Shown one piece after another: positions 1 to 6,000 of a stretch of 64,000 nt of DNA. The stretch is from Escherichia coli (GTDB lineage: Bacteria; Pseudomonadota; Gammaproteobacteria; Enterobacterales; Enterobacteriaceae). The position numbers were made by a program. Positions within the stretch are counted from its first letter, which is position 1, and each line of letters starts with the position of its first letter. The stretch lies in the NCBI RefSeq assembly GCF_024298765.1, contig NZ_CP101211.1; one strand, given 5' to 3'.

Positions 1-3000
1 GAACCCTCTCAAGCCGCTATATGAAAGACGGATCTGAAATTCTTATTGATCGGGGCTGGTCTCATGAACTGGGAGAAACTGATTTCCATAACACATACAA
101 CATGGACCGTCGGCCACGCATGCTAACGCCACGTGAATGCAGCAGGCTAATGGGCTTCGATAAACCCGGGGAAAGTGTTTTCCGTATCCCTGTGTCCAAT
201 ACACAGGCTTACAGACAGTTTGGGAACTCCGTGGTCGTTGATGTCTTTGCGGCCGTCGCCAAACTGCTGAAGTCACGAATTGAATTTGCAGCCTCCCAGC
301 GCTTGCGGCAGTTTTACGACGAAGTCAGCTGACCTGAGCTCCTTCATCAATTTAAATGCTTAAGATTGTTGTAATAATGTCAGAGGTCAACCATGACGTA
401 TTTCGAATCAGCTGAAGGTGAGACGGTATCTAAAGAACGAGCATTACAAGAACTGTCCAGGCATTGCGTTCCCGAAACAGATTTCGAAGAATTCTTTAGC
501 GACATGGGCGTAAAGGAACAGTATGACGCTCAGGAAGTGTTGCTCTGGTTGGGATATTAAACTTCCTGTTTAGGAGACTACTATGAGCCAAAAATTCGCA
601 GTGATGATTGCTTACGACGACGATCCAAACGTCAAAAGGTATTCACCTGACTTTCAAACGCAGGATGAGTTTGCTAAAGGGTGGCAGTCGGCTCTTAAAA
701 AGGCACACCACACCTCAGGTCAAAAATCAGTCATCACCTGCGGATGTCGTGGAAAAGGAGAAAAGCGACTTTATGTTCGTGCTTTACCGAACGGTGATGC
801 CTTTATTCTCGTCAAAGCCGCTAACACGGGCATTGAGCATGATCCTTCCTGTGTATTCTTCTCCCTTGATGCCCGGCATACCGGCCTGAAAGGATATGCG
901 AGTGGTGTGGTCCGGATTACAACCGAAGGTGATATGGCTGTAAGGCTCGGTATCGGTATGACAGAGAAAGATCCTCCTGAAAAATCAGAAGTGCCTCCCC
1001 TGCCCCATGTTCAGCGACCAGAAGGAGGTCAGGCCTCAATGACCCTCCTGGGCTTGCTTAGTCTTTTGTGGACAGAGTCTGGTCTGAATGTCTGGTACCC
1101 GAAAATGGCAGGGAAACGTAACGATTCACTGGTACGGTATCGTCTGCTTGAAACCGCTAAACAAATTCGTACCGGCAGAGCCTGCATAGGTGACCATTTA
1201 TTCATTGGTGTACCTGACCCGAAACAACCTGTCGCTCAGTCGCAAATTCAGCGTCTTTCATCACAGGCGATGAGTGATAAACGTCTCATGCTCCTGTCAG
1301 TTTTACCTCGCTACGATGCTGAAAAGCATGAGAAGCCACTTAAATTTTTACCCCTGCGGAATTTTGGGGGGCTACCGCTGATTTTTTTCAATTCAGAAGT
1401 CCATTGGGATAGCGTAAAGAAACGATTTTCATCGGAGTACGCAGCATGGAAATCCGGGGCGAAAATAGTTGTCTTTGCGTTGACGTCACCAGCTGCGGTA
1501 ACCGGCAGAGGCCCTTCTGTAAGAGCTCATCAAATTGTGCTGATGCACGTTAGCGAGAACTGGATACCTCTGGACTCCTCCTATGAGGCGGTTGTTGCAG
1601 AAAAGCTGGATGCAGAGCACCGGCAGTACGTTAAGCCCATGCGTTATGATGCGAGTATTAGTGAGGTGTTCCCTGACTTCTACCTGCTCGACACAAAAAG
1701 CGATAAGCCGTTCCCGATGGAAGTATTTGGTATGGCCACTCCTGCTTATCTGGCCCGAAAGCAACTCAAAAAAGATTATTACAACCGTGAATATGGGCCT
1801 TATGGATGGTGGCACTGGGATGCGACCACAGCATCTGAAACTATGGTGCTGCCTCATTTTCCAGAATCACGCAAACCTCTTTCAACTGACACACCTGCTT
1901 AAAATGGAGAAAAAATGTCCTACATGCTTTCGCTAAGCGAACAGACAAAACTGAACGCTTTCCTGTCAGGGATCCTAGATGATTACAAGACTGGGGTTAT
2001 CACTCAGATACAAGCTGTTGGTAGAATCGGTAACGTGTTTTCTGCTCTGGAAAGTGGAGACTCAAAAAAGGTAGTGCATTTGTTGACTGAAGGACGAAAA
2101 CTCCTGCGGACGGGCTGAATGTCCGCAGAAGTTCTTATGTGCCAGGGGATGCAGAGAAGTGTATCAACCTGGCTTCATTTATCATGATGTTTTTCTGCTA
2201 CGCGGCTGTTTTGACTTTCCAGTACCTCCCCCTGCCATTGCACCAGTTAATGTATCAATGGTGCCTTTTAGGGATTCTGAGATTGTTTTCTCCGCCTCCA
2301 GGGTAGCTTCCAGCTTCATTACTTTGGCCTGGAGCGTTTTGAGTTCATTGCTTTGTTCAGCCACTTCCGCTTCATAGCCCTGGCTGACCAAAGTTACTTT
2401 ATTCAGGTCGGCGCTCAGCGACTCGTTTAGTTTATGGAGTTCAGTAAGCTCGGCATTCACCGCCACCAGGTCACCCTCTTTCCCGGACAGTGCACTTTTC
2501 AGCTCAGTACAAAGGTTCTGTGCAGCAATCAATTCCTGTTCAAACCTGTCCCTCTCTGCCTTTGTATCTGACACAGTCTGACTTAACTGGTCGCATTGTC
2601 TGGAAAGACCGGCGTTATCAGAACGCTGCGTGTTGATCTCTTCGTTCAGCTTTTTTTGATATTCAAGGTGACCAGCGATCTCTGTTTTACGTTCAGCCAG
2701 TTGCTGGGAGAGTGAGTCATTTGACTGCTGTGCGAGGCTCAATTCATGCCGTGTGCTATCTAACTGGTGATGGCAGGTTTCGAGTTCTGCTTCGGCAACA
2801 TTCAGCCTTGTTTCTAACTCCTTGACGGTACTGTCCCGGATCTCTAATCGACCCTGTAGTGCCTGATTCTCAAGTTTCAGCTCATCCATATCGGTAGCGC
2901 TTTGCTCAAGCCGCTGTAACAGCTGCGTTACCTCCTCCTCCAGCTGCATGCTACGTGCTTCAGCTTTTTTAACACTATCATTCTGTATTGCGGTATAGCT

Positions 3001-6000
3001 TCTACGGTAGTGCCAGGTGATGTACGAGATAATATCGCCGAGTGCAACCTTTACCTCATCGGGTATATCCAGGTAACGGGCCTCTTCAGGAACCTCTTTA
3101 ACATACTTCTGGTACTCCGCGAACATCTCCTGTGACCTTGCAAACGAGCCGCCAACAGCGTTTCTGAGCCAGTGAACTTTGAAGCTCAGATCGATATTTT
3201 CCGGGTTAATTTCTTTCTCTTTGCACAGACGTTCGATTGCATTGAAGTAATCGATCATCGCGATAGATGAGTACCTTGAACGACCCATTTCCTTTGATTT
3301 TTCAGTGGATTCGCTGCGGATGTCATTCTGCACCTCTGGCGGGGTAGCATCGTTCAGGCTTTTTTCTTTATCATTTTCAATCATCATTTTTTTCCTGCGG
3401 CCGGAAGCTGGTTTGCAAAATATATGCTGATAAGATCGTTCAGAGCATTCAGAAGCGAGATACTGTCGATGCAAATATGAACGTTTCCATTCTCAAACAG
3501 GCGACACCGCCAGCCATTCTCATCACTGACCTCGCCTGTGAATTCTGTATTTCTCATGGCCGTCAGCCTGTCGACCATACTCAGCCCACCGCCGGTTGCA
3601 GGTGTTGGAGTATCAGAACAGATGCATACAATATTCTCAAAGTCGCGTAAACAAAAGTGATTGTCCTGCGAGAAACCGTTGTACCTCAGCACGTTCACAC
3701 CAGGAAAAATCCCCCGAAGAACAAGCTTTTTTGGCATTGTATATTGCCTGGCATTGCTTTTGAAACTTCGGTCAAGCTTGTTGAGAACATCAACGAAACC
3801 TTCTGCAAGGGTGTCTCGTCTGTTAGCCAGTGCATGCTGTAATGTTCCCTTAACAATCTCCAGGGAAGCGACGGGCGGATCCGTACGAAGGGATTCGTTA
3901 AAGGCTTCTTTTTGCTTATGGTTCCAGTACCGGTCCATACCTGTTTCTTCAAAGAGCCTTTTCCACGTTTTACGGTCAATTTCCTTACGCCCCTCCTCGA
4001 TGGTGCGATCCAGTGACGACGGAAGACCAAATGCGTTGGGCTGCATAATTCTGCTGGTGAAGAGAGAGAGACCGCACAGTTCCGACGCTTCCGAGATTAA
4101 CCGCATCCCTTCTTCGAATTTCTGCATGGCCATATCCCGGGCGCTGATGAGCTGCCCTGTCCGGCTCGCCGGTACTGGCTCAGAACCCTGGTTTTGAGTC
4201 ATTTTACACTCCATTTTGGTATGTCAGAACATTTTGATTTGAGCAAAGGTAGGACACTATAAAACCTATAGAATTTACGTAGAAACGCGTTTAGTAAAGG
4301 CTTTACTAATTACTAATGACTAACATATTAGCACTTTCAGATATGCCAGCAATACCCCCAGCCAGTGAAATAATGTGATGAGCCCATTAATTGGGGGTAA
4401 TCATTCTATCTGGTTGATATTTAACGCTTTTAATTGTCATCCTTATGTAAGCCTATGGGATTTACTCCTAATTAAATCCCATTGTATGAAAAATAGGCAT
4501 TTATAAGCTTTCATGACGTGACGTTGTCACGTATATCAATGGAATTTAGTCACTAGTAAAGAGTTAACTAGTGACTATCTGCCTAATCGGTGTGCTTGAA
4601 CGGTGCACTCCAGGGCGGATATAAAAATTGATGAGAGATATACAGAAAATGATGGACCGGCTTAATAAGCCAGCCTTTCTTGGGAGGATTGATGCTGCTG
4701 AACACGCTATAAAGCGAAAATGCCCCTTTTTAACCTATAGGTAGGGCACTATGAGTAAGATACAATCAAATCGCCAGTCAGATGGCTAATTTCATGATGA
4801 CCAAAGCGGGCTATTTCAAGCGTTATCGCTGAGACGAGGCTTCAATGACAAGTACACTTGACCCATCACACAAGCAAATTGAAATGTGGCGCAGAGCTAC
4901 CGGTTCCGAAGGTGGACTCGACGAATACCGCAACTGGGTTCTGGAAAATAGTATGAGATTTACAGCATACGGTATCCATACCGTTATCGTCGAAGGTGAG
5001 GCGAAGCATATAACAGCGCTTGATGATGTTACCCTCTGTAACGAGTGGGCGAAGCTTAAAAGAGAAAACAATAGGCTTTACGCAGCAAATGAAAAAATTT
5101 GCTCTGGCTGGCGTGGTTTTGTGTTGCGTTTGTTAGGAATAACACTGTCATGCAGAAAACCGGTCATCTTACTGGGGGCAGACGCGAAGAATCAAAATGA
5201 TGCCGTGAAAGGGGCTGATTTGTAATTTTCAGGCGAGCCCACCGTTCTTAGAAAGCTGTTCTATGGGTATGTAAGGAAGATAATGTTCTCTGAACGCTCA
5301 GTACACTTAATCACTTCCTGTACAAAGGGCAAGAATCATCAGGGCCACGTCTGGCCGACATTGGACATAGATCCAAAACAAACCCCGGACGACGCAGCAT
5401 ATGCCTGGAGTAACATTGTAGACGACGCCAGAAGTAATCAGGCGGTACCGGCATTGTCCTTGTATTCAGGTAATCACTGGTCTACGGCAAAGGAAATTTT
5501 AAACTCAACCAGAAATCTGGAGTTGTGGATAATCTCTGCCGGGATGGGGTTTTTAAATAGTCGAGATCGGGTGCCCTCTTACGAGGCGACATTTCATCAA
5601 GTACCATTCAGGCATGATCTCTGGTGGAAAGCCATCACAAAATCACTAGGTAAGCATAACCGTTGCGCAACTATAAGCCAGTTAATGCAGTCCAGCCCGA
5701 ATGATGAATATTTGATTGCGGCTTCGCCTGTTTATATTGCTGCTGTCCAGAATGACATCCTGAAGGGCATTGAGAGTTTGACTCATCCTCTTACGCAACT
5801 AACGATCGTGACATCAGGGGCATATGCTGGCCCACTTGAAGAATACTTAATTAAGAGTTCTTCAAGAATGATGAAAGAGCTAGAGTGCAATATGGTGTGC
5901 CTGAATATAAAACTGGCTCAATACATACTTAAAAGTGGTAGTCGTTAGAACTAGACTGTTAATGATACAATTCTCCGGTAATGACTCCAACTTATTGATA

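Follow-up and report, generated by a model that had tools for sequence, protein, structure and literature searches.

A conserved DUF4942/coiled-coil operon of IncHI plasmids with a palindromic and putatively autoregulatory control region

What do the palindromes upstream of a small operon on an IncHI2 plasmid do, and is the coiled-coil protein encoded behind them a relative of the plasmid regulator KfrA? The window, a 64,000-nucleotide stretch of Escherichia coli contig NZ_CP101211.1, is IncHI2 plasmid backbone, and a preliminary description of it had proposed a KfrA-like, autoregulated operon at a plasmid maintenance locus. This DUF4942/coiled-coil operon is conserved across IncHI resistance plasmids and has so far been unstudied. 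The two minus-strand open reading frames and the ATGA overlap previously described were found at 3387-3384 (gene 1 stop TGA 3386-3384, gene 2 ATG 3387-3385) and, judged from sequence, the operon is bicistronic and tightly coupled. Its parts are as follows.

2104..2128, no strand assigned: G+C-rich hairpin between convergent gene ends, 54 nt past the gene 2 stop; candidate bidirectional terminator.
2182..3387, minus strand: gene 2, 401-aa coiled-coil protein (ORF; orthologue alignment).
3384..4202, minus strand: gene 1, DUF4942 protein of 272 aa, or 276 aa if started at 4214 (Pfam PF13708, RefSeq annotation).
4209..4212, minus strand: Shine-Dalgarno GGAG, 6 nt before ATG 4202.

On the minus strand, the hairpin at 2104..2128 is a candidate terminator by its position and its T-run, GAGTTTTCG. 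The 276 aa given earlier for gene 1 correspond to the longest ORF, from ATG 4214, but the protein is likely to be 272 aa long, starting at ATG 4202, because GGAG lies 6 nt upstream of that codon and RefSeq annotates 819 nt. An AGGA/GGAG block before the ATG is kept in the orthologue alignment. The gene 1 product matches DUF4942 (PF13708) over residues 77-265 with 92.8 bits against a cut-off of 25, as well as PHROG 38825 (function unknown) with an E value of 4e-100, and a search for PDB fold matches returned none. Stand-alone relatives are found in the leading regions of IncI and IncL/M (pOXA-48-type) plasmids and in CP4-type genomic islands (L0010); gene 1, clearly a PF13708 member, falls in the same length class (~270-285 aa), although its identity to them is merely ~22%. 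Coupling to a coiled-coil gene and to the control region described here is restricted to the IncHI subfamily, and no DUF4942 member has a known function. Elsewhere, DUF4942 is found as a fusion to adenine methyltransferases and, in other plasmid groups, is enriched beside oriT.

Gene 2 encodes 401 aa, in line with the ~400-aa coiled-coil protein described before. A helical head at about residues 40-135, containing LRNAVGGSFARSQEMFAEY, is followed by a coiled-coil tail at about residues 137-385 with a conserved C-terminal motif, AEKTISESLKGTIDTLTGAMAG, and a basic tip; this Lys/Arg/Pro/Thr-rich tip is seen in the query and in 7 of the 8 aligned orthologues. An AF2 model likewise has a helical head (pLDDT ~75) and then a continuous helix from residue 137. 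Residues ~137-385 match many coiled-coil and SMC-rod models, with every score below cut-off. The labels 'SMC' and 'ATP/GTP-binding protein' in some database records were rejected, as the SMC model matches the rod only (43.9 bits against a cut-off of 567); no ABC-type ATPase head with conserved Walker motifs was found in the protein, and the one string resembling a P-loop, AGGGTGKS, is an unconserved part of the C-terminal tail. The family is confined to IncHI-type elements, with 16 representatives among 1.84 billion proteins.

A coiled-coil tail after a small head is the layout of KfrA-type proteins. Published KfrA proteins are autoregulators whose operators overlap the -10 and consist of an inverted repeat in the case of R751 and of direct repeats in that of RA3, and the C-terminal tip of RA3 KfrA binds DNA non-specifically (PMC7821693, PMC7783346). 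Set against the KfrA traits described in those papers (size, head, tail, tip and operator), the gene 2 product is similar in size to KfrA of IncP-1 (RK2, R751) and IncU (RA3) plasmids (401 versus 342-355 aa). Common to both are a long alpha-helical coiled-coil tail and a small, helical head at the N-terminus in which an HTH-like G(G/S)GSF motif is seen; a basic C-terminal tip would be a further likeness, as would a palindromic operator, here a predicted one, at its own promoter. It differs by an insertion of ~8 residues between head helices 1 and 2. Gene 2 is second in its operon, after the DUF4942 gene, whereas kfrA comes first and is followed by kfrB/kfrC, and unlike kfrA it does not lie beside a korA-incC-korB partition operon.

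Profile comparisons only weakly suggest homology to KfrA. The head alone scored 18.6 bits (E 0.003) against Pfam KfrA_N (PF11740), below the gathering score of 26.1, and the Pfam search with the full-length protein gave no KfrA_N match. KfrA_N was matched by 4 of 8 orthologues (best E 7e-5) and is the sole Pfam family matched by more than one of them; the match, of residues 71-169 to profile positions 21-108, spans the putative HTH. Alignment with the IncP KfrA profile by hhalign was colinear over 107 columns and in the same register (P 0.008-0.02, probability 2-3%), while pairwise comparison of the head with the single R751 KfrA sequence gave nothing significant (z 0.33). The LRGxxxxLxxxMAxG-basic tail resembles the R751 KfrA C-terminus at z 4-6 in three orthologues, with 1.8 in the query and about 0 in three others. 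Of the KfrA-like autoregulated operon first proposed, the coupled genes, the KfrA-type layout and the regulatory-looking palindromes held up, whilst the KfrA homology stayed below threshold.

The upstream region (4203-4844) measures 640 bp, close to the ~630 bp reported, and is AT-rich, with 34-41% GC versus 45-53% in its flanks. Both repeats pointed out earlier were recovered, a perfect 11-bp inverted repeat at 4547-4577 (14 bp with one mismatch) and a 7-bp palindrome at 4516-4532, along with two perfect palindromes that had been overlooked, at 4291-4309 and 4455-4482.

4247..4271, plus strand: IncHI2-specific motif copy 1 (AGGTAGGACACTAT + AACCTATAG), in the operon leader, whose identity between lineages is 0.35.
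4272..4290, minus strand: conserved block adjoining D on its downstream side; most lineages read GCG..GCTACGTGAAT, the window GCGTTTCTACGTAAAT.
4291..4323, minus strand: putative operator D, core TTAGTAAAG c CTTTACTAA at 4291-4309 (palindrome, footprint).
4325..4333, minus strand: predicted extended -10, TGCTAATAT, a consensus-level call from conserved TGnTAnnnT.
4455..4482, no strand assigned: palindrome C, ATGGGATTTA N8 TAAATCCCAT (inverted-repeat search, conservation).
4516..4532, no strand assigned: palindrome B, ACGTGAC gtt GTCACGT, core GTGAC N3 GTCAC (conservation).
4547..4577, no strand assigned: distal site A, TAGTCACTAGT..ACTAGTGACTA, ~255 bp upstream of D.
4655..4675, no strand assigned: terminator-like hairpin in the outer intergenic region (terminator scan).
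4732..4752, plus strand: IncHI2-specific motif copy 2 (AACCTATAG + GTAGGGCACTAT), ~93 nt before the divergent ORF, which begins at 4845, and outside the conserved block.

Perfect stems of at least 9 bp with loops of at most 12 numbered 3 against 0.04 expected from 500 dinucleotide shuffles, a ~75-fold over-representation, and stems of at least 7 bp numbered 5 against 0.55 expected from dinucleotide shuffles. The related motifs noticed near 4245 and 4736 are real, pairing AGGTAGGACACTAT at 4247-4260 with AGGTAGGGCACTAT at 4739-4752 and AACCTATAG at 4263-4271 with its copy at 4732-4740, but they are specific to IncHI2 and unconserved in other lineages, and such a 14-mer direct repeat is just modestly unusual, arising in about 0.03 of shuffles.

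The remaining sites are footprinted across lineages. The DUF4942 and coiled-coil genes are adjacent in 9 of 9 diverged IncHI-type lineages, the stop of one and the start of the other being -4 to +5 nt apart, and the upstream order A, B, C, extended -10, D is kept in all nine, save that C is absent in lineage L013. Compared with the window, six other lineages have an identity of 0.68 at D, 0.63 at the extended -10, 0.78 at B and 0.80 at C, against 0.21-0.38 in the spacers, and the block at 4272..4290 reaches 0.63 against a background of 0.33-0.38. In 8 of 9 lineages TGnTAnnnT occupies one and the same position of the alignment, although a simple promoter scan of the window did not call the extended -10 at 4325..4333. 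Sites A and D have common TAGTCA/TAGTAA half-sites, the D core being flanked by further such repeats; in most lineages convergent TAGTAA half-sites lie 10 bp apart at D, with another located ~230-300 bp farther upstream. Within the 64-kb window and ~177 kb of NZ_LT795115 (~240 kb of IncHI2 sequence), the A/D, B and C motifs are unique to the locus, which is expected of a local operator and speaks against a regulon spanning the plasmid. Because they exceed chance, are footprinted across lineages and occur only at this locus, the upstream palindromes look like real regulatory sites.

Regulators encoded elsewhere, either a host factor or another plasmid regulator, could be what reads these palindromes, which would leave the operon without autoregulation; the AT-rich region is possibly also silenced by H-NS/Hha. 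The B core (GTGAC N3 GTCAC) is invariant in 9 of 9 lineages however far the two proteins have diverged, which is what a conserved external factor would lead one to expect, and at 34-41% GC the region lies on a plasmid that encodes H-NS and Hha homologues near the operon. We nevertheless hold this to be rather improbable, for the ~240 kb searched contains no visible regulon and, in one lineage, the A/D specificity has changed at all three half-sites, which is hard to square with a shared host factor.

That lineage, L003, carries TCATAAC instead of TAGTAA at the equivalent positions of three half-sites, two in D and one in A. It is also the only one in which the putative recognition helix of the coiled-coil protein reads GGRIHNATTAF, where the others have GGS[FY]xxxxEM. 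The joint occurrence of half-site switch and helix rewrite in L003 alone points to autoregulation by the coiled-coil protein, with the switch itself resting on this one lineage. Both arms of palindrome C are altered there as well.

Sequence-specific binding of A and D, perhaps also of B or C, might instead be due to DUF4942, with the coiled-coil protein recruited by it as a non-specific scaffold. Since DUF4942 has also diverged in L003 (54% identity), it has to be counted as a possible binder; moreover, its gene comes first in the operon, the coiled-coil head resembles KfrA_N only below threshold, and a DNA-targeting module would be in keeping with the fusions of DUF4942 to N6-adenine DNA methyltransferases, which occur in phages and on this plasmid type. 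The more diverged L013, however, has the most diverged DUF4942 (49% identity; coiled-coil protein 30%) yet keeps both the helix and the TAGTAA sites, so that the switch tracks the helix change in the coiled-coil protein. Domain and structure searches detected no DNA-binding fold or motif in DUF4942, and its homologues stand alone in IncI and IncL/M plasmids without a coiled-coil partner. We regard this alternative as unlikely, if the least so of those considered here.

Taken together, these comparisons make it somewhat probable that the operon represses itself through a KfrA-like coiled-coil protein acting on conserved palindromes. The promoter, the identity of the binder, the repression and the looping described below are all things that we infer. 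Within the IncHI backbone the two genes would be translationally coupled, and a sigma-70 promoter of the extended -10 type (TGCTAATAT, 4333-4325, minus strand) probably drives transcription of the operon. The main operator is probably D. Beginning 2 nt past the predicted -10, D spans the predicted transcription start. The gene 2 product would be a distant KfrA type whose coiled coil of ~250 residues, ending in the basic tip, would keep the HTH-like head (LRNAVGGSFARSQEMFAEY) in a dimeric or oligomeric state. Dimers would recognise TAGTAA half-sites, a convergent pair of which would form D across the predicted start (4291-4323), and occupation of D would block RNA polymerase so that the operon represses itself. 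Site A (4547-4577) may stabilise this repression by looping or may control a divergent promoter; TATAAT abuts A in IncHI1-type loci, suggesting that A may be the operator of such a promoter. In roughly one third of IncHI2 plasmids a ~51-kb Tn7-like insertion parts the intact operon from its control region, so that autoregulation from those sites is dispensable. The autoregulation model leaves palindromes B and C unexplained.

Could the region serve DNA positioning rather than promoter control? The operon might be a maintenance module, as proposed in the preliminary description, or a positioning module, its control region being mainly a cis-acting site, centromere-like or for loading a KfrA-type filament, and the control of the promoter being secondary. 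KfrA proteins do polymerise on operator DNA and contact ParA and ParB homologues (PMC7821693, PMC7783346), and four separate palindromes over ~290 bp exceed the needs of a simple operator. The context, however, speaks against a plasmid maintenance locus: the operon lies ~80 kb from par, rep and oriT (parAB, parM, repB, MobH relaxase), with parAB, parM and repB about 75-100 kb away in NZ_LT795115. No relative of KfrB or KfrC was found, the DUF4942 partner being unrelated to R751 KfrB and KfrC. A repeat search of the intergenic region found no iterated centromere-like array, and the ~51-kb insertion between sites and genes is tolerated. We give this reading little credence. A partition system proper (NTPase, centromere-binding protein and adjacent repeats) was rejected, as profile searches found no ParA, ParB, ParM or ParR domain in either protein, the array is missing and the par modules of the plasmid lie elsewhere.

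The palindromes might also act as nucleic-acid structures, either a leading-region single-strand promoter or initiation signal or RNA hairpins, and not as operators. As single-stranded DNA, the minus strand of 4280-4600 folds far better than shuffles (z -5.6), and DUF4942 relatives lie in leading regions of IncI and IncL/M plasmids. The fold nevertheless consists of four separate short hairpins with no U-runs after them, Rfam searches found nothing, the predicted leader RNA shows no unusual degree of structure (z -1.5), conservation is at the level of sequence with palindromic half-sites, and the relaxase/oriT region is ~80 kb away, which together make such a role very improbable. A Frpo-type leading-region promoter, a long imperfect hairpin of about 200-300 nt near oriT, was rejected on the shortness of the hairpins and the distance.

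Beyond self-repression, the DUF4942/KfrA-like pair may, as our best guess, help to organise or establish plasmid DNA, a function that would be accessory and non-essential. As cited in PMC7821693, TlpA of the Salmonella virulence plasmid is a KfrA homologue and a temperature-sensing coiled-coil autorepressor; by that description alone, it resembles the gene 2 product as an enterobacterial plasmid protein with an N-terminal DNA-binding head, a coiled coil and self-regulation. Thermosensing by the IncHI coiled-coil protein is pure speculation. By analogy with TlpA and with the temperature-dependent KfrA coiled coil, one could conceive, as a long shot, that the pair forms a previously unrecognised IncHI nucleoprotein module, with a KfrA-like filament loaded at A and D and DUF4942 recognising B or C, making the organisation of plasmid DNA, or its establishment in a new host, dependent on temperature. 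If true, this would tie the pair to the thermosensitivity long known from IncHI biology and give the widespread DUF4942 family its first function; the operon as such is a modest extension of an already known type of plasmid regulator.

Around the operon, the neighbours DUF1173, dcm and SNase are also kept wherever a locus has enough intact flank. The pentamer CCTAC (4249-4253, minus strand), which lies inside motif copy 1, is duplicated at a Tn7-like insertion in other IncHI2 plasmids. In several IncHI2 variants homology stops at 4643-4667, and the terminator-like hairpin at 4655..4675 may insulate the operon control region from the divergent unit.

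Plasmids of the IncHI2 and IncHI1 groups rank among the major vehicles of mcr-1, mcr-9, ESBL and heavy-metal resistance genes; large parts of their backbone bear no annotation beyond 'hypothetical'. The stretch 2100-4900 of the window was 100% identical to hundreds of conjugative IncHI2A/MOBH plasmids of 150-300 kb from Salmonella, E. coli and Enterobacter, with NZ_LT795115 as an example of an IncHI2 plasmid. RefSeq labels the products of its minus-strand operon 'DUF4942 domain-containing protein' (gene 1, 3384-4202) and 'hypothetical protein' (gene 2, 2182-3387), the latter also appearing in some records as 'ATP/GTP-binding protein' or 'Chromosome partition protein Smc'. 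The operon is flanked on one side by a dcm-type cytosine methyltransferase, a DUF1173 protein and a thermonuclease, and on the other by a 126-aa ORF, a DpdC-like/DUF6884 protein and a plasmid H-NS, and lies about 80 kb from the relaxase gene.

As the preliminary description had it, the two genes share an ATGA overlap (3387-3384) and gene 2 encodes about 400 residues (401 aa); its 276 aa for gene 1 hold for the longest ORF, but ATG 4202 (272 aa) is the likelier start because GGAG precedes it by 6 nt and RefSeq places the start there. The intergenic region is indeed AT-rich (GC 34-41% vs 45-53% in the flanks), and the 11-bp inverted repeat (site A, 4547-4577) and 7-bp palindrome (palindrome B, 4516-4532) described there are real. 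Two perfect palindromes had been overlooked, at 4291-4309 (9 bp) and 4455-4482 (10 bp, N8). Across the intergenic region, three perfect stems of at least 9 bp were observed vs 0.04 expected, and five of at least 7 bp vs 0.55; a 14-mer direct repeat was only mildly unusual (about 0.03 of shuffles). The two related motifs also exist, as permuted copies at 4247-4271 and 4732-4752, but they lie in unconserved, IncHI2-specific sequence.

Nine diverged lineages were compared, with identities of 49% to 100% for DUF4942 and 30% to 100% for the coiled-coil protein encoded by gene 2. Genes 1 and 2 are adjacent in all nine, at a stop-start distance of -4 to +5 nt, and the DUF1173, dcm and SNase neighbours are kept in loci with sufficient intact flank. 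The upstream neighbour differs between lineages, but the order of upstream elements is constant, as follows.

Control region of the operon, from its upstream end towards gene 1 (minus strand)
4547-4577: site A, most upstream; TAGTCA/TAGTAA half-sites
4516-4532: palindrome B, after A; GTGAC-N3-GTCAC, invariant
4455-4482: palindrome C, after B; ATGGGATTTA-N8-TAAATCCCAT
Between C and the -10: unconserved spacer of about 130 nt
4333-4325: predicted extended -10, TGCTAATAT in the window; TGnTAnnnT in 8 of 9 lineages
4323-4291: putative operator D; TAGTcAyTAGTAAAGgCTTTACTAAAC
Directly after D: conserved GCTACGTGAAT block
After that block: unconserved leader, then AGGA/GGAG ribosome-binding site and ATG

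Identity to the window in six other lineages was 0.80 for C, 0.78 for B, 0.68 for D, 0.63 for both the block after D and the -10, and 0.45 for A, while spacers and leader reached 0.21-0.38. D begins 2 nt past the predicted -10, so that the predicted start of transcription falls within it; overlap of the transcription start is the classic repressor position. The probable main operator is D instead of the sites initially singled out. The KfrA operator of the IncP-1 plasmid R751 overlaps the -10 of kfrAp (PMC7821693), a placement analogous to that of D. A sigma-70 promoter downstream of C was rejected, since the conserved TTTACA-like hexamer there has, by eye, no -10 at workable spacing. In the most diverged lineage, L013, an extra 100-aa ORF (L013:3855-4157) sits between the conserved promoter/operator and the DUF4942 gene, making the operon tricistronic there.

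The gene 2 protein has a KfrA-type architecture: past a disordered N-terminus come a helical head (about residues 40-135), which is conserved, then a coiled coil and a basic tip, with a conserved C-terminal motif, AEKTIxESLRGTIxxLTxAMxG. Many models of rod domains hit the coiled coil, always below the family cut-off, and PADLOC, PHROGs and NCBIfam returned coiled-coil noise only. The full-length protein does not match KfrA_N, the Pfam head domain of KfrA; the isolated head scored 18.6 bits (E 0.003; residues 71-169 on profile positions 21-108), under the gathering score of 26.1. Four of eight orthologues matched KfrA_N (best E 7e-5), each other family being matched by one only. The head aligned colinearly and in the same register with about 107 columns of an IncP KfrA profile, LRNAVG-GSFARSQEMFAEY lying opposite VRKQLGSGSFTTISEAMNEW, with weak statistics (P about 0.01-0.02, probability 2-3%); pairwise comparisons of the head were not significant. 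The C-terminal tail compared with R751 KfrA gave z 4-6 in three orthologues, 1.8 for the query and about 0 in three others. Taken together, the originally proposed KfrA-like autoregulated operon keeps its architecture and operator-like sites, but family membership is sub-threshold; remote homology to KfrA is plausible.

An exhaustive search of 1.84 billion proteins with the head yielded 16 representatives, all of one narrow family confined to IncHI-type elements and none bridging to KfrA; a word-indexed protein search returned chiefly fragments. Among plasmids, the protein occurs in 1429 records, which form two classes, IncHI2 with identities of 80% or more and a second one under 60%, to which IncHI1-type plasmids belong. 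Sequence searches of solved structures with both operon proteins found nothing, and KfrA has no PDB entry. The 'ATP/GTP-binding' annotations probably stem from an AGGGTGKS string in the C-terminal tail (window 2182-2230), which fits the generic P-loop pattern [AG]x4GK[ST]; it is not conserved among orthologues and sits in the disordered basic tip. Our literature search found no functional work on KfrA in IncHI plasmids.

At D, two TAGTAA copies converge 10 bp apart, and a further copy lies 230-300 bp upstream at A; the full pattern is present in five lineages and weaker variants in three more. In lineage L003 TAGTAA is absent and TCATAAC stands at exactly the three equivalent positions, and in this lineage alone the putative recognition helix GGS[FY]xxxxEM of the coiled-coil head is rewritten to GGRIHNATTAF. 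L013 retains both helix and TAGTAA despite greater divergence in both proteins. Such a joint change, here a single evolutionary event, is the signature expected were the coiled-coil head to read A and D. That the DUF4942 protein instead binds these half-sites keeps a small residual probability. The invariance of B would suit either a host factor that is itself conserved or a conserved surface on DUF4942. C has both arms altered in L003 and is missing from L013. The A/D, B and C motifs were found only at this locus in the 64-kb window and about 177 kb of NZ_LT795115; their absence elsewhere in about 240 kb marks them as local sites, and a plasmid-wide regulon sharing A/D, B or C was therefore rejected. 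On these sequence grounds the more probable reading is an autoregulated operon whose second product is a KfrA-type DNA-binding coiled-coil protein.

Gene 1 encodes a clear DUF4942 member (92.8 bits vs a cut-off of 25), whose AF2 model (pLDDT 76) has long helices at the N-terminus and a small alpha/beta part at the C-terminus. Neither sequence nor structure-level searches matched it to a solved structure, PADLOC, PHROGs and NCBIfam gave no functional family, and our literature search found no functional work on DUF4942. Distant homologues (~22% identity) occur in more than 5000 conjugative enterobacterial plasmids, adjoining nikA and oriT in an IncI-gamma/K1 plasmid and lying amid anti-restriction and ssb genes in pOXA-48-type IncL/M plasmids. 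A second DUF4942 protein, 563 aa long, is encoded on the IncHI2 backbone (L016:40274-43376; NZ_LT795115 206274-209376), immediately after a ParB-HTH protein. Its N-terminal DUF4942 is fused to a C-terminal N6-adenine methyltransferase, which hints at a module that goes together with DNA methyltransferases. Phage homologues carry methylase annotation.

The locus had further been described as serving plasmid maintenance, which is unsupported. Nor is it a partition module: Par domains are absent from both proteins, parAB, parM and repB lie 75-100 kb off, and the DUF4942 protein shows no similarity to R751 KfrB or KfrC. A link to the par repeats via AGGTAGGRCACTAT was likewise discarded, as two-mismatch matches in the 249-bp repeats upstream of parA were at chance level (about 3 expected by our estimate). 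We also considered ALTERNATIVES: as single-stranded DNA, the control region has a much more stable fold than shuffled sequences (z -5.6). This fold is made up of four separate short hairpins and is no Frpo-type long hairpin; the predicted leader RNA was unremarkable (z -1.5), and Rfam gave nothing credible in 1900-5400.

In NZ_CP083831, an mcr-9-type IncHI2 plasmid, homology to the window ends at 4249, where a ~51-kb accessory region carrying Tn3/IS26 resistance modules, mcr-9, pcoS and rcnA/rcnR sits between operator D and the DUF4942 ribosome-binding site. Its ends are TGT...ACA with AAAGTTGT repeats, flanked by the 5-bp duplication CCTAC (window 4249-4253), features that are hallmarks of a Tn7-like transposon. 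Of 11 matches sampled from the 80-95% identity classes, which comprise about 440 of 1173 records, 10 begin at the 4249 breakpoint; this breakpoint seems to be common to about a third of IncHI2 records. Both operon genes are intact in NZ_CP083831, though cut off from the conserved promoter/operators. Since an insertion between A-D and the genes is tolerated, these plasmids can do without control through A-D. The finding speaks against an essential role in maintenance, although both genes are retained.

A KfrA-type autorepressor acting on defined half-sites is a plausible regulatory logic for this backbone operon, itself strictly conserved; it would place such an autoregulator in an unusual pairing and context within a clinically important plasmid group, and tie the uncharacterised DUF4942 family to a putative DNA-binding partner. 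The sites are precise and testable, and among them is a natural specificity swap from TAGTAA to TCATAAC. Unless the operon proves to affect stability, establishment or temperature control, only a modest practical gain is to be expected.

Several minor features surround the operon. A plus-strand promoter-like pair, TTGAAC-18-TATAAA (4596-4625), is followed by a terminator-like hairpin (4655-4675) and a 38-codon ORF (4628-4744), and pair and hairpin could provide promoter and leader either for the divergent 126-aa gene or for a small transcript; homology to the window stops at 4643-4667 in several IncHI2 variants. At 4733-4742, ACCTATAGGT is a perfect 10-bp palindrome (ACCT-N2-AGGT), which is IncHI2-specific and may resemble MqsA-type antitoxin operators. 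The DpdC-like gene (5283-5948, plus strand; PADLOC DpdC E 4e-59; Pfam DUF6884) is an orphan with no dpdA or dpdB seen nearby; elements of both the IncHI1 and the IncHI2 type keep it beside their plasmid H-NS gene. In NZ_LT795115, ~3.5 kb upstream of parA (L016:20487-23412) that are gene-free by annotation hold the 249-bp tandem repeat units beside parAB. These presumably make up the IncHI2 repeat region for partition or incompatibility, and the faint similarities to the 4247 motif within them do not exceed chance. Right after the DpdC-like gene the window enters a resistance region that opens (5992-7702) with IS1 (insA/insB, 5992-6689) and then sul3 (6911-7702; NCBIfam Sul3, 613 bits), where in NZ_LT795115 the backbone runs on.
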